Positions 1 through 64,000 of a stretch of DNA of 64,000 nt are shown one piece after another; within the stretch, counting starts at the first letter, position 1; each line of letters opens with the position of its first letter. The position numbers and the translations under genes are program-made. The stretch is from the NCBI GenBank assembly GCA_964291215.2, contig OZ219790.1, positions 1,280,001 through 1,344,000 on the forward strand. The letters are read 5' to 3'. The DNA comes from Alphaproteobacteria bacterium (GTDB lineage Bacteria; Pseudomonadota; Alphaproteobacteria; MPNO01; UBA830). A model generated the notes under the pieces. That model made no database searches. It saw only the letters and a list, made by a program, of their open reading frames with translations, and was not told the DNA's origin.

Positions 1-567
1 GTCAAGAGCGCCCGAAACCTTCGACGGCATCGACCGGGAGACGGATGGCCGCTTCAAGGAGGCAAGGCCCGCCTCGAGCAGCGCGTGCCGCTTGAGGGCC
101 TGATCAACTACCCCGGCAGATCGCCCGCATGCTGCCGCAAGCCGCCGGGAAAGAGCGCCAGCGGTGCAGCGAGCGGCAACGACCACACCGGTACATCAGC
201 TCGATGCGCAACACGCGTCGCCAGAGGAACTGCTGCGGCCGCGGGCCGTGGAAAACATGAACCACCGAGACTGCGTCTTCGGCGAGGACGCCTGCCTGAC
301 CCGCAAACCGCGCCAGCCTCGACAACATCGCGCTCGCGGTGATCTTCGCCAACCGACGCGAGAGCCTCGCCGAAACACGGCGGCGGCTCGACCGCCGGGA
401 AGCCGTCGCAGCCCTGAGCGCCAATGGTGCCCGGCCGATTCCCGGACGCCGCCCACAACCCGCCCACGCGCCGATAACGCCGCCGGCAACGACTGCGGAC
501 GGCCCCGAAAACCCGGCACGCCGTGAAACCTCCGGACAGCAGAAGACAGCAAAATTGAATGCAGCGT
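1..567 (+). mobile_element. Decayed ISAs1-family element, 3' part (copy A; starts before the window)
   Basis: Frame-broken ISAs1 motifs (AVENMNHRDCVFGEDACLTR, NIALAVIFAN); homologous to 40198-40848 but 84 bp shorter through many small deletions. Confidence 0.8.
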
Positions 568-662
568 GGGAAACTCTTGCATACCACGATGGACATCGGG
601 CCGGAGATGTGGAATTGTTGCCCAAGCAAGATCTACGCCGGACTCTGCAGGAGACTTCAGAC

Positions 663-1730
663 ATGACGCGTGAAACCATTCAACCGTTCATTCGCAACGC
701 GTGGTATATAGCCGCTTGGTCGGAAGAACTTGATGACGGGCTCCTTGCCCGCACCATCATGAACGAACCGATCGTACTCTACCGGGATGCCGACGGCACG
801 CCCGGCGGCCTTGAGGACCGTTGCTGTCATCGCGGCGCTCCACTGACCCATGGCACCATAGTCGAGGCCGGACTGGAATGCGGCTACCACGGCCTGACCT
901 TTGATACCAAGGGCAACTGCGTCCGTATTCCTGGCCAGAAAAACATCCCGCCACAAGCGCGCGTACGCAACTATCCCGTGGTCGAACGGGATCAGATCCT
1001 GTGGATATGGATGGGCGACCCGGCACGTGCGGACGAGACGCTGATCGTTGACTATCCCTATCACAATCAGCCCGGGGAGTGGCCGCACCGGAAGGCGATG
1101 TTCCCAATCAAGGCCAACTACATGCTGATGATCGACAACCTGATGGATCTGACCCATCTCGGATATGTGCACCGCCAGACCATAGGCGGCAATCCGGGCC
1201 AGCATGTTGCCGCGGACATGGACACCCGGCAGACCGATCGCGGAGCCTACTTCATCCGCTGGATGCTGGACCACGATCCGCCGCCGACTTATCGCAAGGG
1301 CGGCAAGTTCGATGGCAAGGTCGACCGCTGGCAGGAATTCGAATATGTCGGACCGAGCATCGTGCTGCAGTGGTCCGGGGCGCTAGATGTCGGCAAGGGT
1401 GCACGGGAGGATCGCAACAAGACAGGTTTCCACCTGCGGCTGCTGCATGGTGCAACACCGGAGACCGAAACCTCGTTCCACTATTTCTGGTCCTCCGCCA
1501 ACGGCTATCGTCAGGACGATCCGCAAGCCACCCAGGAGATGTATGACGAGATCTATCCGACGTTCATCGAGGACAAGGAGATCATGGAAGCCCAGCAGAC
1601 GCGGGTAAATCTCGACCCCGAGCGTGCACTGGTGGGAATCCATGCCGACAGCGCCCTCTCGCTGGCCCGGCTCTCGCTCGCAAAGCTGATTGAGGAAGAC
1701 CGCAACATAATGGCGGTGGCGGCCGAGTAG
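663..1730 (+). CDS. Rieske non-heme iron oxygenase alpha subunit (VanA-like O-demethylase family)
   Basis: Rieske motif DRCCHRGAPL...CGYHG; iron site DNLMDLTHLGYVH; GGAG RBS before ATG 663. Confidence 0.9.
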   Translation: MTRETIQPFIRNAWYIAAWSEELDDGLLARTIMNEPIVLYRDADGTPGGLEDRCCHRGAPLTHGTIVEAGLECGYHGLTFDTKGNCVRIPGQKNIPPQARVRNYPVVERDQILWIWMGDPARADETLIVDYPYHNQPGEWPHRKAMFPIKANYMLMIDNLMDLTHLGYVHRQTIGGNPGQHVAADMDTRQTDRGAYFIRWMLDHDPPPTYRKGGKFDGKVDRWQEFEYVGPSIVLQWSGALDVGKGAREDRNKTGFHLRLLHGATPETETSFHYFWSSANGYRQDDPQATQEMYDEIYPTFIEDKEIMEAQQTRVNLDPERALVGIHADSALSLARLSLAKLIEEDRNIMAVAAE

Positions 1731-1885
1731 CGCCAGCAGCTTCCTTCAGAACAGCGGCTCGAAACGATCGGGGCGCACTTGGCGCTGCGCCCCGGTTTTC
1801 GTTTCAGACCTACCCGGTCCGCGCTATCCTGGCGGCCGGACAACCGTCATCGGCATGCCCGGATCAACCACGGGCTTCCGGCATG

Positions 1886-2560
1886 TCAGCTCGCGTGCTG
1901 CGCCATCCATTCCATCGCGCGCGTGTAGGAACGCTCGGTGGCGCCGGGATTGTAGGCATCGCGATCATCGCAGGTGAAGCCGTGCCCCGCGTCGTCGTAG
2001 ACGTAGAGCGGGCAATCCTGCAGCGCATTCTTGATTGTCTGCAGGTCGTCGAGGGGAATCGCGGCATCCTTATCACCAAAATGGAACTGGGTCGGGCACC
2101 TGGGCGCCATTTCACCGACCTTGGCCGCTATGCCGCCACCGTAAAACGGCATTGCGGCCGCAACACCGTCAACCTTGCAGGCCGCGACGTAGGTCGCATA
2201 ACCGCCGAAGCAGAAGCCGATGACGCTGACCTTTCCGGCCGACGAAACCTCGCGCACCGCAGCGCCGATATCCGCTATGATCCATTCGTCGGTGATCTTC
2301 CCGCGGATCTCGCGTCCCTTCGCAAAGTCGTCCTCATTGTAGGTCAGCTCCACCCCTTTCTCGACGCGGTCGAACAGCGCTGGCGCTATCGAAAAATAGC
2401 CTTGCCCGGCAAAATGGTCAGTGGTCCGGCGAATCTGGCCGTTAATGCCGAAAATCTCCTGAATGATGACCAACCCGCCCTTTGCGGGCCCCGAAGGTTC
2501 GGACTTGTAGGCATCGAGCTGATGGCCGTCGGCTGCGGAAAGCGAAATCGTCTGTCCCAT
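1886..2560 (-). CDS. Dienelactone hydrolase family protein
   Basis: QEIFG, GFCFGG nucleophile motif, AGHGF. Confidence 0.9.
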   Translation of the reverse strand: MGQTISLSAADGHQLDAYKSEPSGPAKGGLVIIQEIFGINGQIRRTTDHFAGQGYFSIAPALFDRVEKGVELTYNEDDFAKGREIRGKITDEWIIADIGAAVREVSSAGKVSVIGFCFGGYATYVAACKVDGVAAAMPFYGGGIAAKVGEMAPRCPTQFHFGDKDAAIPLDDLQTIKNALQDCPLYVYDDAGHGFTCDDRDAYNPGATERSYTRAMEWMAQHAS

Positions 2561-2664
2561 AGGTCTTCCTTTCGTTCTGGCTGGGGCTGCCGGGCGCTCG
2601 AGCCGGGCTGACATGACTGGCCAGCCGCTGGTCACGACGGCCCGCCGCAATCTAGCAAAACCGA

Positions 2665-3762
2665 TCATGTATTGAAACGAAAAAGCATGACATCGCCGTC
2701 AGCTACCCTGTATTCGCGGCCTTCCTGGCGCATGCGTCCGGCATCCCGGGCTCCCTGCTCGCCACCGCAGGCGACGAAGTCCTCATAGGACACCGTCTCG
2801 GCACAGATGAAGCCGCGCGCGAAGTCGGTGTGGATGTTGTCTGCCGCCTCGCTTGCAGTCGCGCCAAGCGGCAAAGGCCAAGCCCGGGCTTCCTTCGGGC
2901 CGGCTGTGAAATAGGTGATCAGCCCGAGAAGCCGGTAACCGGCACGGACGAAACGCTCCAGCCCGGCCCGCTCGAGACCGAGGCTGGCGAGGAAATCACC
3001 TCGCTCGTGATCGTCTTCGAGCAGCGCGATCTCTGCCTCGATGGCGGCGGATATGGTCACGCTGGCCGCCCCCTTTGCCACAGCCATCGTCTCGACCCTT
3101 CGTGAAAGGGCGTTTCCCGCAATGTCGCCCTCGCCGACATTGCACACGTAGAGGACAGGTTTGGAGGTCAGCAACTGCATCTGACGATAGAGCGCGCGCT
3201 CATCGTCAGCGAGGGTCATGTCGCGCGCCGGCCGACCCGCCACCAGAAGCTCCATCGCACGGTCAACCAGCAACAGCATCGCGCGGGCCTCGCCATCACC
3301 GCCGCGGACCTTCCGCACGAGTCCATCGCGCCGTCCCTCGAGACTCTGGAGGTCCGCGAGCAGAAACTCGGTCTCCACTACCTCGGCGTCAGCAACGGGA
3401 TCAACACGCCCTGCAACATGGGTAACGCTGTCATCCTCGAAACAGCGCAGCACATGGGCAATGGCATCAACTTCACGGATATGGCCAAGGAACCGGTTGC
3501 CAAGCCCCTCCCCGGTGCTGGCGCCGGCAACAAGGCCGGCGATATCGACGAAATCGAACCGTGACGGAACCGTGGCCGCAGATGCGGCGAGCGAAGCAAT
3601 CCTTGCAAGCCGCGGATCGGGCACTGGCACCACACCCTCATTCGGCTCGATCGTGCTGAAGGGATAGTTGGCCGCACCAGCGGCGGCCGACGCCGTCAAC
3701 GCGTTGAACAGGGTCGACTTGCCAACATTGGGCAGGCCGACAATGCCGCAGCGAAGGCTCAC
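2665..3762 (-). CDS. ychF: Redox-regulated ribosome-binding ATPase YchF
   Basis: GIVGLPNVGKSTLFNALT, ANYPF, DIAGLV, C-terminal TGS domain. Confidence 0.97.
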   Translation of the reverse strand: MSLRCGIVGLPNVGKSTLFNALTASAAAGAANYPFSTIEPNEGVVPVPDPRLARIASLAASAATVPSRFDFVDIAGLVAGASTGEGLGNRFLGHIREVDAIAHVLRCFEDDSVTHVAGRVDPVADAEVVETEFLLADLQSLEGRRDGLVRKVRGGDGEARAMLLLVDRAMELLVAGRPARDMTLADDERALYRQMQLLTSKPVLYVCNVGEGDIAGNALSRRVETMAVAKGAASVTISAAIEAEIALLEDDHERGDFLASLGLERAGLERFVRAGYRLLGLITYFTAGPKEARAWPLPLGATASEAADNIHTDFARGFICAETVSYEDFVACGGEQGARDAGRMRQEGREYRVADGDVMLFRFNT

Positions 3763-4376
3763 CGGGAAGCCTCCGAGCCGTCGGTCTCGCCGCCTCGCTT
3801 GCGTCCCGGCGGCGGTGCCAGCAGGGCGACGCGGGTCATGAAACCGGGATTGTCGCCCGCGACCAGCATCGGCAGGGCCTCGGCAATCGCCGACAGTACG
3901 GGAGCCAGCTGCTCGGTCTCGGCACGGGAAAAATCGGACAGGACGTGGCCGAGCACGCGCCGCCTGTCTCCGGGATGACCGATTCCGACCCGCACCCGCC
4001 GGAAATCCGGACCGATATGGGAGATAATGCTGCGGATACCGTTATGGCCGGCATGCCCTCCGCCGCTTTGCACGCGGACCTTTCCCAGCACGAGATCCAA
4101 CTCGTCATAGACCACGATCACGTCGCGGGCAGCAAGCTTGTAGAAACTCATGCCGGAACGCACCGCCCTGCCGGAATCGTTCATGAACGTGCGTGGCTTG
4201 ATGACCAGCAGCTTCTCGCCGTCGACGTTGCCGTCGGCGACATAGGCGTGGTGCCGCCCCTTGCGCAGGGACAGCCGGTAGCGGCGGATGATCTCGTCCG
4301 CCACCAAGAAACCGATATTGTGACGCTGACGCGCGTGCTTCGAACCGGGATTGCCGAGCCCGGCGACGAGCAGCAT
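3759..4376 (-). CDS. pth: Peptidyl-tRNA hydrolase
   Basis: GLGNPG, RHNIGF, GGHAGHNG; between rplY and ychF. Confidence 0.97.
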   Translation of the reverse strand: MLLVAGLGNPGSKHARQRHNIGFLVADEIIRRYRLSLRKGRHHAYVADGNVDGEKLLVIKPRTFMNDSGRAVRSGMSFYKLAARDVIVVYDELDLVLGKVRVQSGGGHAGHNGIRSIISHIGPDFRRVRVGIGHPGDRRRVLGHVLSDFSRAETEQLAPVLSAIAEALPMLVAGDNPGFMTRVALLAPPPGRKRGGETDGSEASR

Positions 4377-9546: not shown

Positions 9547-9558
9547 GGGCCTGACGGC

Positions 9559-9740
9559 CACGACGATCCCATGCTAATTCGGAGACGCGAAATGCGTTGG
9601 GGCTCATCACAGATCGCCTCCTTGATCGCAATTTTCGTGCCAAGAAGGCCTCATCGAGCCTTGGCGGCACGATTGCAGCGCGACGCAAACTGAGAAAATC
9701 TCGCCAGTCGTCACCGGATCAGCAGCGTGGGATCACCGTG
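9559..9740. mobile_element. MITE, about 182 bp (copy 1)
   Basis: Imperfect TIRs CACGACGATCCCA...TGGGATCACCGTG; 10-bp flanking direct repeat GCCTGACGGC (9549-9558, 9741-9750); second copy at 46774-46968. Confidence 0.85.
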
Positions 9741-10028
9741 GCCTGACGGCCGACCCCGACGGCCCTTTCATCTACTGCGAAATCACGCTGTCCCGCCGCA
9801 TTTCGCGTTCAGGCGGAAAACCAGCTATCGGCTCTGCAACAGGCAAATCGTCTGCATCGGAAAAGTGCTCCGATCGGTCACTTGCGGTCCTGACCGGCAT
9901 GAGAGTCCGGCACGGATCCTCATTTTCCGGTTCGGGCGGCATGAGGTTCAGCGGTTGAGCGCCCGCATTCCAGTTCTTCCGGAGCGAGCAGAGCGAGATG
10001 TCCTTGTGCGGATGCGCATTCTCTCGTC

Positions 10029-10505: not shown

Positions 10506-10717
10506 CGCTTCGGCGGGGACTCCGGATCCTGTCCATTCCCCCGCGCGAGAGAAGTGCGGGATCGGCACTCTCGCGACATTGCATGCCGCCGCGCGGGCTG
10601 TCGGCGGCATGCCCGGACCCCTTGCCGCGATCGCGCGCGAAGGCCTGATTCGCCGACGCGTCGACATGAATCTCTCAACCCGAAATCTCGCGGCCCTGAA
10701 CGAATTCGGCGCCGTTA

Positions 10718-11860
10718 GGTACCTCGCCAAAATAGATTGTTTTTTGGCGTGGATCTCTCATCGATGATGTCATGGAAGCGATGGTCGATACGCTACGATC
10801 CAAATTTGTGGTGTTGCGTCCGGTTCCGGACGAACGTGCGCGACGCCTGTGGGCGGCGGCCCGTGCCATCGGGCGAGTGGCCGAGGCGACGGGGATAGGT
10901 ACCGTTCACGCCGGAGGAGCTTGATGCGGTCTGCGAGTCTTCGGGCGAGGTTCCTTCAGGACGTTTGCGTCGCCCCGGCGGCGGGCGCAACGGATCCGGG
11001 TTTGGTGGCGGCGCGAGCTTGAACCGATGACGCGCGGCGATCCGGAGAGTCCGCTGCGGTGTCACAGTGCCGCTGGCGGACCGTCTTGCGGTCGAGGGCG
11101 TCAGCGAGCGCACGGTGAACCGGCTGCTCCACGATCCGGGGTACAGCCTCCAGGCCAATCGCAAGACGCTGGAAGGCCGCCAGCCCGGGAGGCGCAGTTC
11201 CGACGCGCCGGGTGCGCGCGTTCCGGAGACTGGGCCAGCCTGTGGTGACACCAAGAAGAAGGAAATCCAGTACCGCAATGGCGGCCGGGCCCCAAGGGCG
11301 ACCCTGAGTCCGTCAACGTGCATGACTTCCCCGATCCGGAGCTCGGATCCCCTACGGGGTCTACGATCTCACCGCCAACGCCGGCCGGGTCAGCGTCGGA
11401 CACGACACGGCGGCATTCGCGGTCGAGGCCGCTGGTGGCGGCAGATGGGCCGGCTGCTCTATGCCAAGCGCCTGCTGATCACCGCCGACGGCTCCAACAA
11501 CAGCCGCAACCGGCTGTGGAAGCTGCAGCACCTCGCCGACGAACTCGGGTTGAAGGTGTCGGTGGCCCACTTCCCACCCGGAAAGTGGAACAAGATCGAG
11601 CACCGGATGTTCTGCCATATCACCCGGAACTGGCGCGGCCGGCCCCTCGTCAGCTACCAGGTGATCGTCAAGCTGATCGCCGCGACCACCACCGGCCTCA
11701 CCATACGCTCGGACCTCGACGAGAACAGCTATCCGCTCGGGGTCAAGGTCAGCGACGATCAGATGGACGGCCTCGCCATCCGCAGAGACTCGTTCCACGG
11801 CGAGTGGAACCATACCCTCACGCCACGGAAATAATGATCAACCTATTCTGGCGAGAATCC
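10718..11860 (+). mobile_element. Decayed ISAzo13-family IS
   Basis: GYSLQANRKTLEG, DTKKKE, LLITADG, KWNKIEHRMF motifs with residues missing; TIRs GGTACCTCGCCAAAATAG / CTATTCTGGCGAGAATCC; TTA duplication. Confidence 0.88.
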
Positions 11861-12169
11861 TTATCGAGGTCGCTGCCAGCACGCGGACCGAGCAGCGCAG
11901 CCCCGAGTCCTGCGCCATTAAGTCCGAGGAGATGGCCGCCCGGCCGGCTCGCACTGCACGTTCATCCGCGGCCAGTTCCCGCCGACCCGTTATCCACTAT
12001 ATTTTGCGTGCCCGCCAGAAAAAGACACTATTTTCTCTTGCCACGATCCCTGCCCTCTGGCACTCTAAATCTGGTAGGCAATGGTCGTCCACCCTCACGA
12101 TTTGGTGGGCAAACTGTGGAAAGCCCGGAAAAAAACCGGGTTTTCGAAGCCGTCGTCAGGGGCACCAGT

Positions 12170-14652: not shown

Positions 14653-14795
14653 TTCCGAGCCTGCGGCGAAACGGCACCGGGTTCCGGCTGCAGGGATGAG
14701 ACGATTTCCCACGGTGTTCGAGCTGTAGCCGGACAACGCGTGTCAGCCGGCCATCGACGCGGGCGCTTCGGTCTCGGTCCTGCAGATTCGCACTA

Positions 14796-15915
14796 CTGTT
14801 ATGTCAGCAATGATATGTCGTACATTTGGTGCTAGACTGTCCGTCCATTCGGGATGGAGGTCGGAGTATGAAACGCTACGTGGTGACCTTGGACGAACGG
14901 GCAGAACTTTCGGAGATCAAGGGCTCGCACCTGTCGCAAAAGGTAATCAACGCCCTGCTTAACTGCGACGAGGGCGCGTTCAATGAATGCCAGATGACCG
15001 GGAAGGTCATTGCTGAGATTCTGCGCATCAGCATGCGCAAGGTAGACCGGGTGAAAAAGCGTTTCGAGGGGCTGGAGGCGGCATTGGGTGGCCGGCGCCG
15101 TCCTACCTACATGCGAAAAGCCGACGGCGTCTTCGAGGCGCGCTTGGTGGCCCTGAGTTGTGGTGAACCGCCTGAGGGTTACGCGCAATGGTCGTTGCGG
15201 CTGCTGGCCGACCGCGTTGTCGAGCTTGGTTACATTGATACCGTGTCACACGAGACGGTGCGGCGTGTTCTAAAAAAACTGCCTCAAGCCATGGCAGCGG
15301 GTGGGTGATTCCTCCTCAAGGGAACGCCGACTTCGCCGCAGCGAAGGTGCTCGATGTCTATCGCCGCCCCGCCGCCTTCCCCGTGGTCTGCATGGACGAA
15401 ACGCCCCGACCGGCGAGACATGGCAACCGATCGCCATGGCGCCGGGACGGGCGTAACGACTACGAGTATCGACGTTGCGGTACCTGCAACGTCTTCACGG
15501 AACCCCTAGCCGGCAAGCGCATGACCAAGGTAACCGAGCGCAAGATCGATTGGGCGCAGTTCCTAGCCGACATCGCCGGGCGCTACCAAGATGCCACCAC
15601 CATCACCCTGGTGATGGACAATCTCAACACTCCCCGGCGCCCTCTACGAGGCCTACCCGCCGGACGAGGCCAAGGCCCTGTGGGACCGCTTCGAGTTCGT
15701 CTACACCCCCAAGCACGGCAGTTGGCTGAACGTGGTGGAACTCAACGTCATGATCCGCCTGAACCGCCGCATCGACTGCATCGAGGTGTTACGCCGGGAA
15801 GTCGCCGCCTGGCAGGCGACCGCATCCAGGCCAAGGTGGATTGGCAGTTCACCACCGACGATGCCCGCGTGAAACTCAAACGCCTTTATTCGACATTTGA
15901 CGAATGACAAGACAC
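14796..15915 (+). mobile_element. Decayed IS630-family IS
   Basis: WSLRLLAD, SHETVRRVLKK, VCMDE, LVMDNLNT, YTPKHGSWLN, KLKRLY; TA duplication; frameshifts and missing residues. Confidence 0.88.
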
Positions 15916-16070
15916 TACCCTGTCGAAGCCGCTGACCGTGAACATCCGGGCGAGCGCATGGGAAAGGCGCACCGCGCCGGTCCCTGACCGCTCCCGTTCG
16001 GCATACCGTTTCTTCATCCGACCGGCTGCGCGGTATCGGGACTGGTTCACGGGCAACGCCAGGCCGAAGG

Positions 16071-35688: not shown

Positions 35689-35695
35689 GCACCGG

Positions 35696-37107: not shown

Positions 37108-37144
37108 CGGAACAACCTCTTATGGCGTGTTTCGCCCTATCCTC

Positions 37145-39499: not shown

Positions 39500-40146
39500 G
39501 GCCGGTTCGGAGCTTGAGGAAGGCATCCTGAGGAGCCACAGGCTCAAGATCGCCGAACATCGTGCCGATCCTGGCCAGCGCGTCGACGCGGTTGGCCAGA
39601 TGGCCCATCGCCTCGGCGAAGCGCCGGGCCCGCAGCGGGCAAGACAACCTCGAAGCCCCGATCATGAAGACACTGGTAAACCCTGCGGTGATAGCGGCCT
39701 GTCGCCTCCATCACCACACGGGTCACCTCGAGGCTGCGAAGCCACGTGCCCGCCAGCTCGTGGCGTCGTTCGCAAAACAATGCGCCAGATGTTCAGACTG
39801 GCCTTGCTGACATCGATCCCTGCTATTACCTTGACCATCGTCCCTTGCTCCTCGTCTCATGATGATTCGGTTCCAAACCTAGGCATCCATTCAGGACACG
39901 AGGGACGCTAGGGGAGGTTGGCCGACCAAGCTTGCGCACGGCTCTGCAAGGCCAAGACGGAAACGGTCCGACCAACCTCCGCGGAGATCGTTTGATCCCC
40001 GCTCCCCTGTGCGTGTTCGCGCAGGGGAGCGGAATCTCTCTGTAACCATGGACCGGACGCTCTCCCACAGTCAGGGTTGTCCACATTTTCCCGTCCCCGA
40101 CCGCTGTGGATGATTTCATCATCAAGGGGATAAAACCTGATCATAT
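39500..40146 (-). mobile_element. IS110-family fragment (non-coding end plus recombinase N-terminus), copy 1
   Basis: VVMEATGRYHR, ARRFAEAMG; non-coding end homologous to 45171-45451. Confidence 0.78.
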
Positions 40147-40848
40147 AAGACGGCGACGCTGATCACCCGGTGCTGCGGCGCAGACCACATCTTCCCGGTC
40201 AAAGGCAATGCGCTCGAAACCTTCGACATCCTCGACGGCATCGACCGGGAGACGGATGCCAGCGGCCGCTTCAGGGAGGCAAGGCCCACGGACGCCTCGA
40301 GCAGCGCTCGATACGTGCCGCTCGAGGACCTGATCAACTACCCCGGCGTCAGAGCCGGATCGCCCGCATCAAGCGCTACCGCAAGCCGCCGGGAAAGAGC
40401 GCCAGCGGCGCAGCGAGCGGCAACGACTGCACCGGTACATCATCACCTCGCTCAATGCGCAACACGCGTCGCCAGAGGAACTGCTGCGGCTCGGTCGCGG
40501 GCACCGGGCCGTGGAAAGCATGAACCACCGCCAGAGAGACTGCGTCTTCGGCGAGGACGCCTGCCTGACCCGCAAACCGCGCCAGCCTCGACAACATCGC
40601 GCTCGCGGTGATCTTCGCCAACCGACGCGAGAGCCTCGCCGAAACACGGCTGCAGCTCGACCGCCGGGAAGCCGTCGCAGCCCGGCCCTGAGCGCCAATG
40701 GTGTCCGGCCGATTCCCGGGCGCCGCCCACAACCCGCCCACGCGCCGATAACGCCGCCGCCGGCGACCGCGGACGGCCCCGAAGCCAGAAAACCCGGCAC
40801 GCCGTGAAACTTCCGGACAGCAGAAGACAGCAAAATTGAATGCAGCGT
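40147..40848 (+). mobile_element. Decayed ISAs1-family element, 3' part (copy B)
   Basis: GADHIFPVKGNA, GHRAVESMNHRQRDCVFGEDACLTR; homologous to 1-567. Confidence 0.82.
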
Positions 40849-40989
40849 AGGAAAGACCTAGCTTCTACGGTCCGGCCCACCAAGAGATAGCCGGCGTGCT
40901 CAGGGACGACCGGGAGGAGGTCAACCTGCTCGCCGGTTTCGGTGCCAGTACTAACCCGTCCGCCGGGCCGGGAGCGCGCGGGAAGCGGC

Positions 40990-43693: not shown

Positions 43694-46600
43694 CAAGGTG
43701 ATCCCATGCTTGTTGATGTGATGTTATCGGAGTCCTGATCGCGGCGCGGGTCGACGCGTTCGAGGCTGCGATTTTGAGATTTGCTGACGCGCTGTTGCGG
43801 CGCGGGGCGCGATTGGTCGGCGTATCCGGGGCGAGCGAGAGGCCTTGGTTGTCGGGCTCGAAAGCTTGCGGTTTCTGTCGGGCAGAGGGGCGCGGTCAGC
43901 CTGGTCTTGTGATTGCGTGCAGGACCTGCTTGCGCTTGTCCGCATGGTGGGAAGCTGTTGAAGGGTTGGGCAGCTTGCGCTTGTTGTGGATGATGATTGC
44001 GAGGGTGATCGCGTTGTTTGCGGGCGCGTTCGGAGCATGGAGTCGTCTTCGCGGAAGGTGGCGTCGCGGACATGATGATGGCTCTCGACTACCCAGTGTC
44101 CGCGATTCCATGCGAGCAACTGTTGCGGCGAGGCGCGCTCGACCGAGCATCCATGTTTCTTGGCAAGGTTTTTGCGGGTGTCTGTGGTGATGTTTTCTGT
44201 GGTTGTCCACAAGCGGTGTGGGATTTGCTCTGCGAGCGAGGCGACATGAAGCTTGTGGTCCCGGCGGCGGGTTGCCGTCCATTAGTCACGTGAACGCGGC
44301 TACCTTGCCGCCCCCGGGCATGGTAACGTGACCGTCCGGGTTCCAGGTGTCCCAAGGCGGTTCGATCTCCTCGATGTCGGCCTCGACGATGATCTGCAGA
44401 CATTCTCCCCAAGTCGTGTCGTAGTAGGGAGACTGTCGATACAGTCCCGATCGCGCTCTCGGCAGGGCCGTGTCTCCTTCGCTCACTCACCGGTACTTCA
44501 GGCAACGCTGCTGTCGCAGCAAGGTGTTCGCCAGAGCTTGCGCATCACGGCGACAATCGCGACCTTGCTTGCCGGCAGTCTTGAGGCGCACCAAGTCCGC
44601 GTTGAAGCGTGCCGGTCGCGGCCAGGAGATCACGTGGCCTTTGGCGCCCGCCACGGATGTGCCGAGCACCGTGGTCGTTGGCCATCGGCGCCACCCCGAT
44701 CAAGGCTGCCGACGCTGCCGAGTTCGGGCATCCAGAAGGGCCGCGGCGGTCACCGGATCGAGGTCAGGATGGCGTACCTCTGCTCGGGATCACCGGCGAT
44801 CACCGCTTTGATCGCCGCGCCGGCGGTCATCGAGATCGGCCGCCGAGGCCCTTGTGACGGTCTCGCCATCCACCTCATCTGCCACGCGTCGACAAGCGCG
44901 GCACCAGGAGATCCTCCAGGCTCTTGAGGAAGGCGGAGCCACAGGCTCACCGTGCCGATCCTGGCGTCGACGCGGTTGGCCCATCGCCTCGGCGAAGCGC
45001 CCGCAACGGGTTGACGAGAATAACCTCGAAGCCCCGGTCATGAAGACACTGGTAAACCTTGCGGTGATAGCGGCCTGTCGCCCGCCACCCGGCTCACCCC
45101 GAGGCCGCGAAGCCACCTGCCCGTGGCGTCGTTCGCAAAACAATGCGCCAGATGTCCAGACTGGCTGACCCCTGCTACTACCTTGACCATCGCTCCTCGC
45201 CTTGTGATGATACGGGTTCAAACCCAGGCATCCAGCGAGGGATGCCAGGGGAGGTTGCCAAACTCGGACGCGGCTCTGTCAAGGTCGAAACGGCAAACTC
45301 CGCGGAGATCGTTTGATTTCCGCTCCCCTGTGCGTGTTCGCTCAGGGGAGCGGAATCTCTCTGCAACCATAGCTCTCCCACAGATCCACATTTTCCCGCC
45401 CCCAACTGCTGTGGATGATTTCATCATCAAGGGGACAAAACCTGGTCATATGGCGTGTTCGGTTTTCCTGAATTCGACGCGCCGGGTGACGCGGAAGATC
45501 TGCTTGACTAGTTGATCATCTTCGCCAACGGGTTGAAGATGATGCGCTGGCGGCCATGCGCGGGCTTTTCACTATAGCGTCCCGTGCTCGCGGTCTTCCG
45601 GTTGATGCTCTCGAAGGCGCGTTGCCCTTGACCATCAGTCCGCGCGATGGATCTCGACGATCAGCCTCGCGGGTGGTGTGGAGCGCGTCGAGGGTGAGCA
45701 GACGGCCGATGCCGTCGCGGCGTGGACGGCAGCGATCTCCCCGCCGTGACAGTTGAGGACCGAATACCGGCCAGCGAGGCCGTCTCGTAATGATCCTCGC
45801 CGGTGCGGCCGCGCTTGCCGTCGACCGCGTTGCCGACCTGCGGCTGCGCGCCGCATCCTCGATCCATCCCGGGTCGGTAGCACCCGGTGCACGGTGGAGG
45901 CCGGCTTGTCCCTGTTCTTCCACGCTGCTTCAGATCCTTCTGCGTCATCGCGTAGTGCGCCGCCGCGCCGGTTCGCAAGCCGCGCCATCACGCACAGCAC
46001 CGAGGCGATGCCCCTGCGCGCGCCGGAAAGCGCCCCGAAGTGCTGATAAATCGAGCGCAACTCCTGCGCCGACCAGCGGCGCCCGCAACTCCCACGCCGC
46101 AGGAAGCGGCGAACGATCCCGCGTCACGACGCAGCGGAAACACGTAAGGATCCTTCGCCTCCCCGTGCCGGTCGGTATAGCGCCCGCTGGCGCGCGCATG
46201 GCCCCTGCCAACGCACTCCCGGTTCGCCGCCTTGTACATGGCGCCGCTGAACTTCGTCGGCGAGACAAACTTCTACACAACAAGCAACGGATGGCGCGGC
46301 CTCCCATTCGCCGCCGCACCATCCGCGACAACGCAAACGAGGCCCGGAAACACTCGGCGACCACCAGAAACAACAAACCTCGTGTTGTTCCCGGCAACCG
46401 CCTGAACCGTTCCTCGCGGCGCCAGCCAATCCAACGGTCCCGCGGCCGAGGGTGCCCGTCTGCCAGCCCGCAGCGCCAATCCACCGCCCGCGCCAGGTGA
46501 ACACGCAGCGCAGACCTCGACCGGCAAACTGCTTGAAACCAAGATGGTGATGACCGTCAACGACACGATTCCAGCGGCATCAGGCCGCGCAAGGTGCACA

Positions 46601-46763
46601 ACCACATCCCGGAGCGCAAAACCCTCCAGAGTCGTCTCAAAAAAAATCCGCTGTCTCCACGACAACGGATACTGCGCCGCTTCACAAAAAGCCAGCGAAA
46701 ATGCGAATCATCTTGAACAAGCGAAACCGACCCTTCCAACAAACTTGGCGTGGGATCATCGTG
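43694..46763 (-). mobile_element. Decayed ISAs1-family element with an N-terminal DUF4338 (DruA-like) region, interrupted by IS110
   Basis: RDRWIGW, NNTRFVV, FVSPTKFSGAMYKAAN (DUF4338-like); LLTLDALHT, MVKGNAP, RGHWVVESHHHVRDATFREDD (ISAs1); ends resemble the MITE TIR. Confidence 0.7.
44487..45451 (-). mobile_element. Decayed IS110-family element, copy 2
   Basis: RFAEAMG, IAGDPEQRYAILTSI, RFNADL...GK...ALANTLLR fragments; non-coding end shared with copy 1. Confidence 0.75.
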
Positions 46764-46773
46764 TGACCGATTG

Positions 46774-46968
46774 CACGACCATCCCATACTCTAATTCGGA
46801 GACGCGAAATCCGAATGCGTTGGGGCCCGGCTCATCACAGATCGCCTCCTTGATCGCAATTTTCGTGCCAAGAAGGCCCCATCGAGCCTTGACGGCACGG
46901 TTGCAGCGCGACGCAAACTGAGAAAATCTCGCCAGTCGTCGCCAGATTAGCAACGTGGGATCGTCGTG
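46774..46968. mobile_element. MITE, about 195 bp (copy 2)
   Basis: Homologous to 9559-9740; flanking direct repeat GACCGATTG (46765-46773, 46969-46977). Confidence 0.85.
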
Positions 46969-54312: not shown

Positions 54313-54321
54313 GGGCCGGCG

Positions 54322-56944: not shown

Positions 56945-57121
56945 ATACGATCCCGCTTTCCCGTCCGCCCCGGCTCTCGAAGGAGCCATTTCAGACCAAC
57001 GTTCAGGCCGCAAGGGACCGTCGGCCGCCAGCCCTTTCGAAAGCATCCGCCTGCCTCTCCCATGCCAATCCGCGCCATTCCTGTCAAGACGCCGATACTT
57101 CCAAGCCCAACCTTTCCCACA

Positions 57122-60119
57122 CTTACCCCCTGGTTCCGGCTTGATGTCGGGGTAGAGCAACGAACGGGTTTTCGTGGAGATTTGACATTGCAGCCCGATT
57201 CGTTCAGTGACGGTCATCGAGAACGACGGGGACCGCCAGTGGGCTACTTTGGATCGAAGGCGACGAGCGGGCTGTGCCAGCTGCTTCCGGGGCTCCAGCC
57301 TCCGCATGATCTGTATGTGAAAACGCATCTCGGAGGCGGCGCGCTGATGAAGCGCAAGGCCGGGTGATGGCGACGGGCGGCGCGCGAGGAGTTCGAAGCG
57401 GCCAAGGCGCTGCGTGCGGCCGGCAAGGTGGCGGAAGAGGCCGTGATCCGCGTCTTCGTCATCCTGCTCGACATCATCATCGTCGTCCTTCTGGAGAAGA
57501 CTACGCACGAGCCGGAACTCCGGTCTGCCGCCGTCACAGACGGACAAGAGCGTGCCGGGAGCAACGGCCCGAAGCCGAACCGGCAGATGGGCGACAACCT
57601 GCGCAAGACCATCGTCGAGGAAACGGTCGCGGCCTGCGACGCCTGCGGCGCCGACATGGACGGCCCCGTCGATCGGGAGCGCCGCACGACATCGTGTTCG
57701 AGGTCGTCGAGCGCCGCGCCGAGATCAAGGAATGCCCGAAGTGCAAGGCCCGGACCAAGGGCCGGTTCCCCGACAACATCCCGTGCAGTACGGCATCGGC
57801 ATTCAGGCCCTCGTCATCAACCTGCTGGTTGCCCAGATGCTGTCCCTGCGCCGTGCCGTCGCGTTCGTGCAGGCGATATCAAGCTCTCCGAGGCCTCGGC
57901 TATGCTTTCACGATGCGTCATGGGAGGAGGCCGCCGTGGCGCACCTCCTGCAACGCCCGATGTCGACGATTTCGGATCAACAGTAAGTGGCTCCATGTCG
58001 TGGGACCCTGACGTGCAAGTTCCCGCACCGCAAGCGCGGCCGGGAGGCAAGAGATCGGCCCGTGCTACAAGGGCGTCCTGGGCCTCGTACATGGGCCAGT
58101 GTAGCCACCAGTTGTGCGGCAGCCACCTGCTGCGCGAACTGACCTTTGTCGTCGAGGCTACCGCGCGACTGATGAAGAGCCTGCTCCCTGCCACAAGGTC
58201 AACAAGAGCGCATCCAAAACCCTGAACGACGCCGGGCGCTACCGCACCATCAGGGCGCCAGGGAACTGCCCGACATCCCGCCGAAAGGAAAACGTGGACG
58301 CAAACGCGCACAACCTGCACGAACGTCTCGTGAAACACGAAAACCTGCGCTTCACAGACGACCATCGCGGTAGGGAACCGGGTTACCCCCCGCACAGAAC
58401 CGGACGTGCGCTGTTCGCTCCTCCCCTGACGACAAGGCGCTGGTTTGGCCACGGGCTCAGTGGGCAGCGGTGAGGGTGTCTATGTCCCCGGTGAAGTCCT
58501 TTTGGGAGCGTCGCCGAAGGGCACGCAGCTGTTTGCATTGGTGTATGAACTTCTGCAGGCTGCTTCCTGGAACGGCGTAGTAGCAGCCGTTGATAACTCA
58601 CCACTTGGCCGTTTCGTGCCGGTTATCGTGCCACCGCCTGCGCAAGGCCTCCTTGATCCGCCGCAGGGTGCCCGTTTGCGACCGACCCTGAACCTGCCTT
58701 TCCTCGTCTGTTCGCAGAAGTGCGTCATGCCGAGGAAGTCGAACGTCTTGCCCTGTCCACGCTTCCGGCGGTTCGCTCTGGCAAACCGACCGAACTCGAT
58801 GATTTTCCGGGTGCAGTTCAAGTGGGCCAGTCTCTCCCCAAGGTCTCAGCGCCGCCCAGATGCTGAAAGCCGCACACGAAGTCGTCCGCATAATGATCGT
58901 GTCGCCTCCAGCCATCCGCTTGCGCCAGTGGTTCTGGAACCAGTCGTACGTAGTGCAGGTTCGCAAGGCATGGCGCCGCCCCTTGCGGCGTTACCTTGCC
59001 AGTCGGTCCCTTCCATGACGCCGGCGTCACTTGATGATCAGACCCCCCGATCCGTTTCCCGAGCATCGCGACCAGATGGTCGCGGTTGTCGAAGGGGCGT
59101 CAACGATCCAGTTGACCTTCCGCCGTTCCACCGTGACGGCGCATGATGCGCCCCGGCCGGAAGCCGTAACTAAACCCGAGGAACTCCGTCTCGCGGCACC
59201 AGAATCACACCGCCCGCTGAAGAATCTTGTCCGAGGCAAGTTGCCCTCCATCCTCCTTGGGTATGTAAACCCCGGAGGCGCCCGGTACGCACCCCTGTGC
59301 ACACGGGCGTGCAGCAGTTCCACACCCTCCGCGTACGCTTGCCACACAACGCCCCGCCGCCGCGTCCTTCCTCAAGGAATGGAACGCATCGTGTAGAACG
59401 TCGACCGTCACGTGGTGGAGTAAAGACGCTCTTCCGGGTTCCTCTTCGCTACCTGCGTTCAGCCGCCTGTGACCCCCGCTTCTGCGCGCGGCGCGGGCCA
59501 ACCGCATTGCCCTTCCCTCCAACAACTCCGCAGGCTCCGAAGAACCCTTGTTCGCCGCCTTCAGCGGTACTATGGCCGAATCTGACTTCTCGTTCATCAT
59601 CGGTTTACGGATTAGTTCCTTTCCTCTGCGGCCCCTCCACGACAGAGGGGCAAGACCTCCCAGGTCCCTGCTTCGGCCCTGGTTCTCGGACCCCGCGGAG
59701 CCCCCCTCACCAACGCGGCTCGTTGCCTTCGGCCACGACCTCGGCACTCCGGTTTCAAAGCATCTCGTGGCTCAATAGCCTGCCGCTCCCCAACGCTTCG
59801 CCTGGCGACGCATGGTTCACGGAGAAATTAGCCTCTCTCGGGACTTGCACCCGGCCACATTTCACCAGTTTGCCTGGCGCACCCAATGTCAGCTTCACCA
59901 ACAATGCCGGAGAACAGAAGATCAGGATGGCAAAGGTCAAGGTGCCCGGATGCTTCCGCTCCACGCAAAAGCATGGTGCCGGAGCTCAAGCTACCTCACC
60001 TCCATGGCCGCACTCGGCTACAACCCACTCGTCGCCACCCAGATCGCCCTCGACGGAAAAGCCGCAGACATCATCAACGAGCACTATGAATCAGAACCCA
60101 ACAAGGGGTGAGTAGATAC
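57122..60119 (+). mobile_element. Decayed single-ORF IS66-family element (copy C) interrupted by a group II intron
   Basis: CDACG and CPKCK Zn finger, HQLCGSHLLREL, FTDDPNVSFTNNAGEQKIRMAKVK; right end GGGGTGAGTAGATAC; left TIR eroded. Confidence 0.85.
58364..59882 (-). mobile_element. Decayed group II intron with frameshifted reverse transcriptase/maturase
   Basis: 5' GTGCG at 59882; 3' domain V/VI ...GCACGTCCGGTTCTGTGCGGGGGG...CCCTACCGCGAT; RT fragments VYIPKEDG, TPQGA, YADDFV, FDFLG; removal rejoins the IS66 frame exactly. Confidence 0.9.
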
Positions 60120-60617
60120 GGTTTGCGCTTCAATAAGCTCTATCCATCCTTGCTGCTCAAGATAGTTATCAAAGAAACCAATCTCTCTATCGCCCTCCGG
60201 AATTAATGCGGATGAGGAAGCCTCGATCCACGACAGAGCTAGGAAAAAATTTTCGGGACTGGATTGATGGCCAATCGCGTGAAAGCCAGAACCTGGATAT
60301 GATTCGAGACCAGCCATAAATCGTAGAAGCCGGTCGGCCCGCTCGCGAACGTGCAATGGGCGGCTTCTCTCGGCATCTTTGATCGTATTCGTGTTCACTT
60401 CTGGGCAATCAATGCCTAAGCGCCGTTGGTTGTTCAGCCATGTGGTCAGACGACCCTTTAAAGAATTATCGCTTTCTCTAATTGTCGCTGTTGCGGATCC
60501 GCTTATGAAATAGAAGCCACCGGCGCGGGGCGAATTGACTTTACATCCATCTCGGTCACCGACGCTGTGGTCAGTTGCTGGCGTTCCCCAGATTGGGCAG
60601 GCAAAATTTTCAGTCAT
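60120..60617 (-). pseudogene. Low-GC hypothetical protein (CPIWGTPA...SPRAGG), 3'-truncated by IS66
   Basis: Start overlaps the stop of the upstream RM fragment; frame runs into the IS66 end. Confidence 0.6.
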
Positions 60618-61320
60618 GCGTTTGTCCTCGCATGGATCATGGTCAATATCGCTGCGATCCGACGAGCCGTATCGGCAAAGTGCTGCACTTCCTCGGGAAA
60701 AAGGGGTCGGCCGAGGACGGCGCGCTCGCGGTAAGACAGCCATTTCTTGAGCACTTGATAGCCGCCCAAGCGGTAAGCCCAGACGGCGGCGGGGACGTTG
60801 CGCCAGAACGCCTCGTCGTTGAGGTGGATGTCGAAGGTCGTGCTGCCGAGGGCGGGTAGGGAATCGTCCAGGCCGGCGCGTTCGGCGGGGGTCAAGGCGC
60901 GCTCGACAGCGTGGCCCTGGCCGGGCATCACGGCGTCGCCTTGGCCGTGGTGGCCCCAGCCCGCCGTTACCGCGAAGTCGGCACCCGTCATGTTGCGCCC
61001 GCCGACAGTGGCGGGGACGGCGAGGGCGGCAATCTCCGAGCGCAGGGGTGCTTGCGTCACGCCGGGAACCGGGGTGTCGGGATCGAGCAGCACGGCGAGT
61101 TCGCGCCCGCGCGCCGCCGACCGAGCGAGTTCCTCCGCCGCGTCCTCGTCGCTACCGTTCGGCCAGCCCGGCAGCGGGATGCGCGGCCACTCCATGCGCA
61201 ATGCCCCAGCATTGGCCTCGCGCCAAGCGGGATCGTGCAGCGTGGCGAGGACGTGGTGGAACAGGTCCTCGACGCCAAGGCCGAGATGTCGGAGGTAACA
61301 GTGCGCCGCCTCGCTCAGAT
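60614..61320 (-). pseudogene. C-terminal fragment of a Type ISP-like restriction-modification enzyme, 5' part lost at IS5
   Basis: EDLFHHVLATLHDP, WPRIPL, WRNVPAAVWAYRLGGYQVLKKWLSYR; the frame does not continue on the far side of IS5. Confidence 0.7.
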
Positions 61321-61322
61321 TA

Positions 61323-62159
61323 GGTCGTGTACCCATAAGGGGTTTCTTCTTCAGCGAAGCTGTGATTCAAGCTCCCAACTTCAGGGAGCGAGGACATGGG
61401 CCGGTACGATCTGACAGACTTCGAATGGCGGGTGATCAAGCCGTTGCTGCCGAACAAGACCCGTGGGGTGCCGCGGGTTGACGACCGGCGGGTGTTGAAC
61501 GGCATTCTGTGGGTGCTTCGCGCGGGGGCGCCGTGGCGAGACCTGCCGGAGCACTACGGGCCTTATACGACCTGCTACAACCGGTTCAACCGCTGGCGCA
61601 AGAAGGGCATCTGGGATCAGTTGATGGATGCGGTGGTGGAGGCTCACGACGGCAATGTGCAAATGATCGACAGTTCGAGCGTCCGGGTTCACCAGCATGC
61701 GGCGGGATCAAAAAAGGGGGTCCGGATCGTTGCATGGGCCGTTCCCGTGGCGGACTGACCACGAAGATCCACGCCGTGTCGGACGTGAGCGGCCTGCCGG
61801 TCCGCTATGACCTCAGCCCCGGCCAGGCGCACGACACCACGGCCGCCGGTGCCATGCTGGCGACCCTGCCGCCCGACAGTTTCCTCGTCGCCGACAAGGC
61901 CTATGACGCCAAATGGATCCGTGACCTGATCGAGCAACACGATGCCGTCCCGATCATCCCCGACCGCGAAGGCGCGAAGACCAGGCACGCTTTCTCCAAA
62001 CCCTTGTATAAATTGCGAAACCGGATCGAACGCGCCTTCAACAAACTCAAGCAGTTCCGCCGCATCGCCACCCGATACGAAAAGCTCGCGGCCAACTTCC
62101 TCGCCATGATCAAGATCGCTACTGTCAGGCTCTGGCTACGCGCTTATGAGTCCACGGCC
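61323..62159 (+). mobile_element. Intact IS5-family IS (IS427-like); two ORFs joined by a programmed -1 frameshift
   Basis: TIRs GGTCGTGTACCCATAA / TTATGAGTCCACGGCC flanked by TA; orfA 61396-61758, A6G at 61710-61716; IDSS, GRSRGG, ADKAYD, RNRIER...RRIATRYEK. Confidence 0.93.
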
Positions 62160-62185
62160 TAACACCGGGCGGCATCCTTTCTGAG

Positions 62186-63160
62186 CTATTTCAGATGTTT
62201 GGCGAAGAACGCAACGGCACGCTCCACCGAGTCTAGGGCTGCCGCTTCATTGCGGCCATAGGTGACACCCCGCCTCATGCAGTCGAGCTTGTATGCTTTT
62301 CGGAGGAATTCTTTGTAGGTAAGGCCCTCGGAAGAGAGGGTTCCAAACTCTACTTCGCCGTCGAGGCGTTGAACGCCGATTGGGCAGTCGGCAAGGGAGC
62401 GTATGTCGCTCCGATAGAGCGATCTGTGGCTTATAAAGTTGTGATGTGCGCCCGGATAGACGACTGTTTCGACTTTGCCGCCTGCTTTCCGCATTTTGTC
62501 CGCCTGCGTCAAGCAGGCATCGTGAGGAGTGACGTTATCGGCTTCGCCAAGCAGCATTAACAGCGGCGCACCTGTCGGCATGTATTGTTCGAAATCGGAG
62601 CCGCACCAAGGATAGAGCGCGACGCCGGCGGCGTAACGGGTCTTGGTTGTTAGAACCGCATCAGCCCACGGCTTATGAGTAGAGCGGATAGTCATCGTGC
62701 CGCCTGCGCTGAGGCCAGAAATGCCGATCCGGTCGGGATCGACACGCGGATGCTTCGCGAGTGATTCCAGCGCCCGCAGGGCGTCTGTGAGGCGCGAGGC
62801 GAAGGATAACTGACCCTGATTTCCGGAGGTGCCTTCGATGTTCCGCGCGGTGAAACTGTCGGCAATGAACAGGCCGATACCTTCTGCGGCCAGCCCGTCA
62901 CGGAGTGCGGCGCGAAACCCCCTTGAGTGCTTGCCATAGGCTGGGCCGCTGCCATGCTGAAAGACAACGACCGGGAACGGTCCTTTGCCTTCGGGAAGCA
63001 TTAACCTTCCTTCCAGAGTTACCGGCTTACCCCATTTGCCGGCGAAGGCGTCTCGCCAAAAGTCGAAATTGGAAGAAGTGTATTTCACAGTTTCCCCGGT
63101 CATTCCTCCACCGCAAGCGGCAAGCAGCATGACGGCGGCTATAGCGAACACAATGCGCAT
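62186..63160 (-). CDS. Dienelactone hydrolase-like alpha/beta hydrolase, predicted lipoprotein
   Basis: Lipobox LAAC; HGSG, GLSAGG, GEADN, YPGAHHNF; lower GC than backbone genes. Confidence 0.85.
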   Translation of the reverse strand: MRIVFAIAAVMLLAACGGGMTGETVKYTSSNFDFWRDAFAGKWGKPVTLEGRLMLPEGKGPFPVVVFQHGSGPAYGKHSRGFRAALRDGLAAEGIGLFIADSFTARNIEGTSGNQGQLSFASRLTDALRALESLAKHPRVDPDRIGISGLSAGGTMTIRSTHKPWADAVLTTKTRYAAGVALYPWCGSDFEQYMPTGAPLLMLLGEADNVTPHDACLTQADKMRKAGGKVETVVYPGAHHNFISHRSLYRSDIRSLADCPIGVQRLDGEVEFGTLSSEGLTYKEFLRKAYKLDCMRRGVTYGRNEAAALDSVERAVAFFAKHLK

Positions 63161-63242
63161 TGGAATCCCTCCCGGTTACCGCCCGGCCGGAATAGCCGGG
63201 CCGTTGTCACTGCTTCCAGTGTATATTTACCAGTGTATATTT

Positions 63243-64000
63243 GTAACTGCTCACCCCCTGGTTCCGGCTTGATGTCGGGGTAGAGTAACGAACGGGTTTT
63301 CGTGAAGATTTGACACTGCAGGCCGATTCGTTTAGTGGTGGTAATCGAGAACGACGGGGACCGCCAGTGGGCTACTTTGGATCGAAGGCGACGAGCGGGC
63401 TGTGCCAGCTGCTTCCGGGGCTCCAGCCCCCGCATGATCTGTATGTGAAAACGCATCTCGGAGGCGGCGCGCTGATGAAGCGCAAGGCCGGGTGATGGCG
63501 ACGGGCGGCGCGCGAGGAGTTCGAAGCGGCCAAGACCGCGGCGCTGCCGGCAAGGTGGCGGAAGAGGCCGTGATCCGCGTCTTCGTCATCCTCATCGTCG
63601 TCCTTCTGGAGAAGACCACGCACGAGCCGGAACTCCGGTCTGCCGCCGTCACAGACGGACAAGGACGAGAGTGTGCCGGGAGCAACGGCGAGGGCCCGAA
63701 GCCGAACCGGCAGATGGGCGACAACCTGCGCAAGATCATCGTCGAGGAAACGGTTGCGGCCTGCGACGCCTGCGGCGCCGACATCGACGGCCCCGTCGAT
63801 CGGGAGCGCCGCACGACATCGTGTTCGAGGTCGTCGAGCGCCGCGCCGAGATCAAGGAATGCCCGAAGTGCAAGGCCCGGGGCCGGTTCCCCGACAACAT
63901 CCCGTGCAGTACGGCATCGGCATCCAGGCCCTCGTTATCAACCTGCTGGTCGCCCAGATGCTGTCCCTGCGCCGTGCCGTCGCGCTCGTGCAGGCGATAT
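63243..64000 (+). mobile_element. Decayed IS66-family element (copy D), runs off the window
   Basis: Intact left end GTAACTGCTCACCCC; homologous to 57122-57879. Confidence 0.88.

Follow-up and report, generated by a model that had tools for sequence, protein, structure and literature searches.

We analyzed a 64,000-bp stretch of DNA (G000:C1:1280001-1344000, referred to here as the window) from an alphaproteobacterial genome, G000, which comprises 6.15 Mb in two contigs with a GC content of 64%. Our data indicate that repeated mobile elements of the window, mostly insertion sequences (ISs), have lost large numbers of short segments, that the majority of these losses are 5-7 bp long, and that the deletions in IS copies exist in sequencing reads. 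With confidence that goes about halfway, we favor the reading that these are real 5-7 bp deletions made by a lineage-specific, sequence-blind, genome-wide process and amplified in multi-copy dead DNA.

The bacterium is sponge-associated, and DNA of the window is present in sponge and marine metagenome runs. Its PurA is at most 74% identical to that of named alphaproteobacteria. We compared G000, the genome under study, with four congener genomes (G001-G004). G001 is a sister genome (approximately 92% identity to G000) assembled in 220 contigs, and G002, from the same genus (approximately 72% identity), is complete at 6.1 Mb; the assemblies of G000 and G002, in one or two contigs, both count as near-complete. 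By k-mer counting, approximately 1.75 Mb of the 6.15 Mb of G000 (approximately 28%) consists of 18-mers that occur at least twice, and the load of mobile DNA is therefore extreme. The genome-wide picture of repeats given here draws on these 18-mer counts, on alignments of 11 repeat families with 8-144 copies each, and on 400-kb samples. Segments scored as lost are those of 4-9 bp, counted per window copy.

Size and frequency of deletions in repeated DNA

An earlier reading of the sequence alone (the original prediction) held that mobile DNA of the window is eroded by deletions of 3-9 bp, visible directly between sister copies of an element. The sister copies bear this out. Over 631 columns, positions 1-573 (copy A) align to 40224-40854 (copy B) with 23 mismatches and 11 gap openings that total 70 gap bases, and a MAFFT alignment places every internal gap in the copy at 1-567. 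When the window repeats were aligned to the genome, 1,720 high-scoring segment pairs (HSPs) contained 12,808 gaps for 46,565 mismatches, a ratio of 0.28. Gap openings per mismatch ranged from 0.18 to 0.32 among the window families, compared to 0.05-0.08 for host paralogues and an intact IS5 element, and in the family alignments the ratio of unique indel events to unique substitutions is 0.2-0.38. Each window copy lacks 7-53 of the scored segments, a density that reaches 35 per kb.

The deletions are not spread evenly over the predicted range of 3-9 bp but cluster at 5-7 bp. Among the window repeats, gaps of 1, 2, 3, and 4 bp numbered 1,722, 623, 339, and 152, respectively; those of 5, 6, and 7 bp numbered 2,078, 3,759, and 2,492; and those of 8 and 9 bp numbered 476 and 162. 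Gaps of 5-7 bp comprise 65% of the 12,808, with a mode of 6 bp, one trough at 3-4 bp, and another above 8 bp. Similarly, the 991 indel blocks of the family alignments include 135 of 5 bp, 197 of 6 bp, 99 of 7 bp, 22 of 8 bp, and 6 of 9 bp, and families that differ in transposition chemistry share the same size spectrum. The first 400 kb of G000 give the same picture, with counts of 269, 71, 48, 23, 265, 739, 241, and 23 for gaps of 1 to 8 bp, respectively. Old paralogues of G002, processed with the same pipeline, yield a falling size curve with bumps at multiples of three, so the 6-bp peak is not a product of the pipeline. The young repeats of G002 (loci L110-L129 of G002:C1:1-400000) have 56 gaps of 5 bp, 65 of 6 bp, and 7 of 7 bp, a peak at 5-6 bp with a mode slightly shorter than in G000.

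A deletional bias in bacteria was reportedly described by Mira, Ochman and Moran in 2001. The repeats studied here resemble that bias in that non-functional DNA shrinks by small deletions, that selection appears to keep genes clean, and that deletions exceed insertions (16 versus 78 gap positions in the outgroup comparison described below). In the part of Danneels et al. 2018 (PMC6054270) that bears on this point, indels of bacterial pseudogenes have power-law sizes with an excess at multiples of three and arise at rates approximately 10-fold below those of substitutions. Relative to those passages, the repeats of G000 differ in placing 65% of gaps at 5-7 bp, in carrying 0.28 gaps per mismatch, and in favoring 5 and 7 bp as much as a multiple of three would be. 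No paper on fixed-size 5-7 bp deletions in bacteria was among those listed by keyword searches of the literature.

We next give the repeat elements of the window, with strand where assigned.

1-581: copy A of family F1, an eroded 3' fragment; approximately 36-47 genomic copies; predicted label ISAs1 unconfirmed
9559-9741: miniature inverted-repeat transposable element (MITE)-like repeat of approximately 183 bp; approximately 113 copies; 0.23 gaps per mismatch
10706-11882, plus strand: eroded ISAzo13 copy; Pfam PF07592, 132 residues on 142 profile positions; 17 of 27 segments lost
14784-15924, plus strand: eroded IS630-type copy (F4); Pfam HTH_32 and DDE_3 on split open reading frames (ORFs); 13 of 22 segments lost
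29600-31400: eroded IS family F5; predicted label IS1634 unconfirmed; 17 of 31 segments lost
36112-37119, minus strand: intact IS1595-type transposase, an uneroded control; full Pfam DDE_Tnp_IS1595 and zinc ribbon
37200-38100, minus strand: eroded IS256 fragment (F6); Pfam Transposase_mut at profile positions 184-265 only; 18 of 27 segments lost
38101-39300, minus strand: eroded IS630-type copy (F7); partial Pfam DDE_3; 12 of 46 segments lost
39513-40100: unlabeled repeat family F8; approximately 63 copies; 7 of 31 segments lost
40198-40848: copy B of F1, the longer sister of copy A; 7 of 26 segments lost
44101-45400: repeat family F9b, an unlabeled IS; 40 of 61 segments lost
45500-46800: repeat family F9c, an unlabeled IS; 35 of 50 segments lost
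57121-58400: F10a, the most abundant family, approximately 190-226 copies; 38 of 61 segments lost
58401-59900: F10n, nested in F10a; 53 of 69 segments lost, approximately one per 28 bp
61366-62159, plus strand: IS5/IS427-type element, an uneroded control; Pfam DUF4096 and DDE_Tnp_1 ORFs
63231-64000: second F10a copy, running off the window; 0.29 gaps per mismatch, mean gap 6.6 bp

The loss of conserved residues is plain in the ISAzo13 copy, where, as the original prediction had noticed, the window reads HFPPGKWNKIEHR (PPGKWNK) and the intact transposase of a Streptomyces plasmid reads HMPPGTSKWNKIEHR (PPGTSKWNK). Two longer copies of F5 elsewhere in G000 differ from the window copy by 28-34 gaps. 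At the other extreme, the IS5/IS427-type element gives 4 HSPs with 0.05 gaps per mismatch and a mean gap of 1.3 bp. The F10a copy at 57121 is interrupted by F10n and continues from approximately 59882. Apart from weak matches, F10a is absent from G001-G004, which indicates that its copies are young and that the IS expansion postdates the split from G001. Copy A of F1 is likewise missing at the orthologous site of G001, and contigs of an approximately 96% relative (runs X1 and X2, from two other studies) part from the window upstream of position 578, so that copy A is seemingly absent there as well.

We found that the deletions are present in read-derived Logan unitigs of three runs of one study (X12, X13, and X14), a set that may include the source sample of the assembly. 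Four deletion junctions of copy A were recovered. Junctions 46/47 and 70 lie in gapless unitigs from X12 (record 27-84, depth 375), X13 (depth 158), and X14 (spanning 1-84, depth 668), and junctions 117/118 and 130/131 are gapless in X12 record 101-160. Cover from X12 is lacking at junction 198 and, at 97% likeness, over 177-242 and 485-506, and the read contigs neither bridge whole IS copies nor phase the deletions. The unique flank at 545-4200 is identical in X12 over 3,656 bases. The haplotype of 27-84 that carries two deletions occurs in 6 assembly copies and at 8.3-9.3 times the single-copy depth in reads. Furthermore, copies with the same local sequence differ in having a given deletion, which rules out an error driven by sequence context. 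Comparison with the intact outgroup ISAzo13 transposase requires 16 gap positions for a consensus that retains all segments and 78 for a majority consensus; since the former needs fewer gaps, the outgroup sequence indicates that the events in IS copies are deletions rather than insertions.

Separately, unitig depths over the IS segment (window 1-581; X12-X14) exceed the exact assembly copy number 1.3- to 7-fold. Either the samples hold more copies or strains, or the IS is common to other members of the community.

Sharing of deletions among copies and their sequence context

Most deletions are common to many copies, which combine them as mosaics. Every deletion of the F1 alignment occurs in many copies and all combinations are seen; at 70% of 428 sites, half or more of the copies have the gap allele; and sites recur across copies with identical boundaries. 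Few deletions are private, and most are not independent events. On trees built from substitutions, 88 indels of 4-9 bp and 1,395 substitutions are private (ratio 0.063), compared to 379 indels and 1,235 substitutions that are shared (0.31). Indels require 7.05 steps per character on the substitution tree and substitutions 3.66. Linkage between deletions and single-nucleotide polymorphisms (SNPs) is approximately half of SNP-SNP linkage at every distance.

Pairs of copies that have diverged by less than 0.25% already differ by 4.3 gaps of 4-9 bp per kb, and their gaps of 1-3 bp track substitutions. One pair has 2 substitutions and 9 indels over 1,354 bp, and one IS630 pair has no differences over 1,103 bp. 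In five of six near-identical pairs, most of the gaps that set the two copies apart are present in the majority of other copies too. The window segment at 34250-36100 (1.85 kb), which adjoins the IS1595-type transposase, is present in three copies of 100% identity with no deletions. No deletion site falls in the first 110-250 alignment columns of three families, a weak observation given the lower coverage of the ends.

SNP-SNP r2 among IS copies is 0.49 within 10 bp and falls to 0.29 and then to 0.22 beyond 30 bp, so IS copies are mosaic at the level of tens of bases, an unusual feature in IS families. Mosaic variants and linkage that falls within tens of bases are also features of concerted evolution by gene conversion. 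Unlike in gene conversion, deletions here are more homoplastic than substitutions and move without neighboring base changes, and very short or loop-specific tracts would therefore be needed. The elements also resemble MITEs and other non-autonomous IS derivatives, in that dead, shortened copies outnumber long ones and seem to have gone on multiplying. However, MITEs arise by one or a few large deletions, compared to dozens of 6-bp losses here. The longest copies of F1 and ISAzo13 (loci L130, G000:C2:3333837-3335932, and L131) have frames split into two to four pieces, and no obviously intact master copy was seen for either family.

The deletions are sequence-blind and have no motif. No positional motif was found within 45 bp on either side of 368 sites, where relative entropy is at most 0.02 bits except for a normalization artefact at +1; flanking positions therefore contain no signal like a protospacer-adjacent motif (PAM). 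GANTC and T-rich PAM-like patterns have no positional peak around the sites, and no base, dinucleotide, 3-mer, or 4-mer stands out at them. The best 4-mer, GCCA, was seen 44 times versus 26 expected (z = 3.7 among 256 tested), TCGA 24 times versus 24.9 expected, and ATC 64 times versus 56.9. The deleted span contains AT in a fraction of 0.24 of events, compared to 0.19. The closing stem in a hairpin test averages 0.80, as does the null, site spacing revealed no periodicity, and tandem repeats are not preferred. Inside deleted segments, polymorphism is 0.101, compared to 0.127 elsewhere. Mismatch-triggered cutting was considered as a candidate and rejected, since polymorphism is not raised in deleted segments and NucS was not found in G000. 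Singleton substitutions are 60% C>T/G>A, which is not distinctive for a genome of 64% GC.

Microhomology at the deletion sites averages 1.54 bp, compared to 0.84 bp under random placement, and microhomology of at least 3 bp is found at 21% of sites versus 8% under the null. In place of the many microhomologies of the original prediction, the excess is thus modest, and 35% of 431 events have none. The raised microhomology recalls slipped-strand mispairing and microhomology-mediated end joining as treated in the relevant part of PMC6054270, whereas the events without microhomology and the lack of preference for tandem repeats or hairpins do not. A narrow size window is also not what slipped-strand mispairing or microhomology-mediated end joining would be expected to give. 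Slippage, which the original prediction had offered as a cause, is accordingly left with the raised microhomology in its favor and the 35% of events without any against it.

Possible origins of the deletions

We questioned whether the deletions are confined to repeats. In 217 kb of aligned single-copy DNA, gaps of 5-9 bp number 33 in G000 and 2 in G001 (binomial p = 3.7e-8), a density in G000 of 0.15 per kb. The host genes pth, rplY, prs, ychF, lgt, proC, katG, serA, purA, and others of the window have full-length Pfam matches. The expectation that host genes are intact suits the housekeeping genes of the window. Outside the window, a gene for an AMP-binding enzyme and a gene for an MFS transporter are complete in G001 according to Pfam, and gaps of 7 and 8 bp split them in G000. 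Taken together, the 33 versus 2 gaps and the two broken genes make a genome-wide microdeletion mutator filtered by selection the best fit among the explanations put forward originally, without the causes that were named for it. Ku (PF02735) and the LigD polymerase domain (TIGR02778) were found in none of the five genomes (G000-G004), which removes end-joining repair by these proteins. Ku and LigD are also absent in most symbionts covered by the relevant section of PMC6054270, where microhomology is noted at some sites. Loss of single-stranded DNA exonucleases fares no better, since RecJ and XseA are intact in G000 and the ExoI domain, not found in G000-G003, was not found in a Caulobacter control either. 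MutS and MutL of G000 are full length without stops, which speaks against a loss of mismatch repair.

Another pair of gaps relative to G001, of 5 and 7 bp and 36 bp apart, lies in a class I aminoacyl-tRNA synthetase gene (G000:C2:2621012 and 2621048). Together the two gaps restore the frame, and the ORF is open over 3,498 nt. The double gap, which lies in an essential gene, is the result either of a paired event or of a single complex one.

The process that we favor would act at a low rate, be specific to this lineage, and make deletions of 6 ± 1 bp anywhere in the DNA. Selection would clear these from working genes, and dead IS copies, being neutral and still copied, would accumulate them. 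Daughter copies of dead elements mobilized in trans would inherit each deletion once made, and short-patch gene conversion could pass deletions between copies. According to an excerpt of PMC5427490, the loops that MutS of E. coli can process are no longer than four nucleotides. Loops of five or more nucleotides might then escape an intact MutS, which would set the lower edge of the size peak, and such MutS-invisible loops could allow deletions to move between copies without neighboring base changes. As for the 6 ± 1 bp lesion, our guess would be a staggered two-strand break of approximately half a helical turn, with the overhang lost and the ends rejoined without Ku.

Several observations weigh against a genome-wide process of this kind. 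Outgroups could be aligned at two of seven single-copy events, and in each case the segment is missing from G004 as well as from G000, so that polarity in single-copy DNA is secure only for the two broken genes. Within 300 bp of IS insertions, where the DNA looks unconstrained, indels of 1-2 bp are enriched approximately 5-fold (2.4 per kb), yet only one gap of 5-9 bp was found in 16 kb. The density of deletions in IS DNA, up to one per 28 bp, is far above the 0.15 per kb of single-copy DNA. Since IS DNA is far richer in deletions than the unconstrained single-copy DNA next to it, some specificity for mobile or repeated DNA is possible. The signature is not in the sister G001 but the 5-6 bp peak is present in repeats of the more distant G002, which calls for two origins or one loss, and none of nine repair and defense families tested separates the genomes with the signature from G001. 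Since 35% of events lack microhomology, slippage is not the whole origin, and the explanation leaves the source of the 6-bp lesion and its rarity above 7 bp outside its account. Lastly, the mosaic pattern is taken from the assembly, and part of it could be the work of the assembler.

It is possible, if on the unlikely side, that the process is tied to mobile or repeated DNA itself, through error-prone copying during transposition, repair of the donor gap, or a homology-dependent reaction of copies that have diverged, with single-copy events as spill-over. This would account for a deletion density in IS DNA at least 10-fold that of single-copy DNA, for the lack of enrichment in unconstrained DNA beside ISs, and for a signature found in the IS-rich G000 and G002 and not in single-copy DNA of G001. 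It would also suit 4-9 bp gaps that are not clock-like, being at 4.3 per kb already below 0.25% divergence, and the pair with 2 substitutions but 9 indels in 1,354 bp. Nevertheless, nearly every gap that distinguishes a near-identical pair is also present in other copies and is therefore not new. Clean copying is also seen, in the three 1.85-kb copies, the 1,103-bp IS630 pair, and near-identical long ISAzo13 copies; these clean young copies contradict mutagenesis at every transposition. Polymorphism is lower inside deleted segments (0.101) than outside (0.127), which argues against a mismatch-triggered reaction. Finally, the spectrum is the same across different transposition chemistries, and deletions of this size class also break two host genes.

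A technical artefact of sequencing, assembly, or polishing of repeats is very unlikely. The signature is strongest in repeats and was seen in the assemblies of one or two contigs (G000 and G002) and not in the 220-contig G001, as an artefact could be. Unitig depths 1.3- to 7-fold over assembly copy numbers, the missing X12 cover at junction 198, and best-matching runs that may be the window's own source point in the same direction. On the other hand, four junctions are found in read unitigs of three runs at depths of 158-668, the unique flank is identical in X12, the same local sequence occurs with and without a deletion among copies, singleton substitutions persist in the same copies, and 33 events lie in single-copy DNA.

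Fungal repeat-induced point mutation (RIP) makes C-to-T transitions, hits fresh duplicates, and spares single-copy DNA. The system described here is like RIP in that repeated mobile DNA is far more damaged than single-copy genes; it differs in its lesion, a 5-7 bp deletion, in leaving identical young copies untouched, and in affecting single-copy DNA as well. A fast RIP-like or guided system is unlikely, and the silencing system of the original prediction found no support, given the lack of a Piwi domain or other candidate gene among those searched for, the lack of a motif within 45 bp, and the three untouched 1.85-kb copies. In particular, we hold it highly improbable that a guided nuclease of the CRISPR (clustered regularly interspaced short palindromic repeats), TnpB, or Argonaute type cuts IS DNA that is then imprecisely rejoined, as deletion-based silencing. 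Sites do recur in copies with identical boundaries, and staggered cuts by guided nucleases would suit a size of 5-7 nt. However, no Piwi domain was found in any of the five genomes, G000-G004 (cas and tnpB genes were not searched for), no Ku or LigD polymerase domain is available for end joining, no PAM-like signal is present within 45 bp, young identical copies are untouched, and approximately 430 sites in 11 families would each require their own guide.

Ordinary decay of old IS copies under the usual deletional bias is barely tenable, since, although deletions outnumber insertions as usual and 60% C>T/G>A singletons are unremarkable in a GC-rich genome, the size spectrum is peaked rather than a power law, indels per substitution reach 0.2-0.38, and the absence of the main IS family from four congeners makes its copies young.

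Smooth power laws are the accepted description of indel spectra in bacteria, and a spectrum with two-thirds of its events at 5-7 bases points to a distinct, unnamed biochemical step. A genome-wide process would amount to a new mutational signature, one that a phylogeny could date and that could be linked to the gain or loss of a gene. If mobile DNA is preferred, it would be a new bacterial way to disarm transposons. That sponge-associated bacteria hold a new activity that removes approximately half a helical turn (6 ± 1 bp) in a sequence-blind manner with a preference for multi-copy mobile DNA, as a counterpart of RIP with fixed-length deletions in place of point mutations, seems doubtful to us. 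The mosaic sharing also makes it possible to ask, in a natural setting, whether loops beyond the size limit of MutS move freely from repeat to repeat.

Annotation of eroded elements and further observations

Deletions make transposases unrecognizable. The stretches that the original prediction had labeled ISAs1, IS1634, IS110, IS66, and group II intron have no Pfam match at E ≤ 1e-5, and F9b has none among its ORFs of at least 130 aa. Since several families thus go without a Pfam match, annotation, pseudogene counts, and repeat dating are distorted in sponge symbionts.

The direct repeat GGCCTGACGGCC lies on either side of the MITE-like repeat (window 9547-9752); it is 12 bp rather than 6 bp long and is either a target duplication or a part of the element itself. 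The other two copies of the triplicate segment at 34250-36100 lie at G000:C2:3514744-3516594 and C1:79680-81530, and the segment includes an ORF with a bPH_3 domain. Lying beside the IS1595-type transposase, this segment of at least 1.85 kb looks like a recently active composite or cargo-carrying element. Between IS copies, at 60617-61366, a 250-aa ORF matches PF18135 (Type ISP restriction-enzyme C-terminal domain) only at profile positions 167-317; it is the remnant of a large restriction-modification gene.

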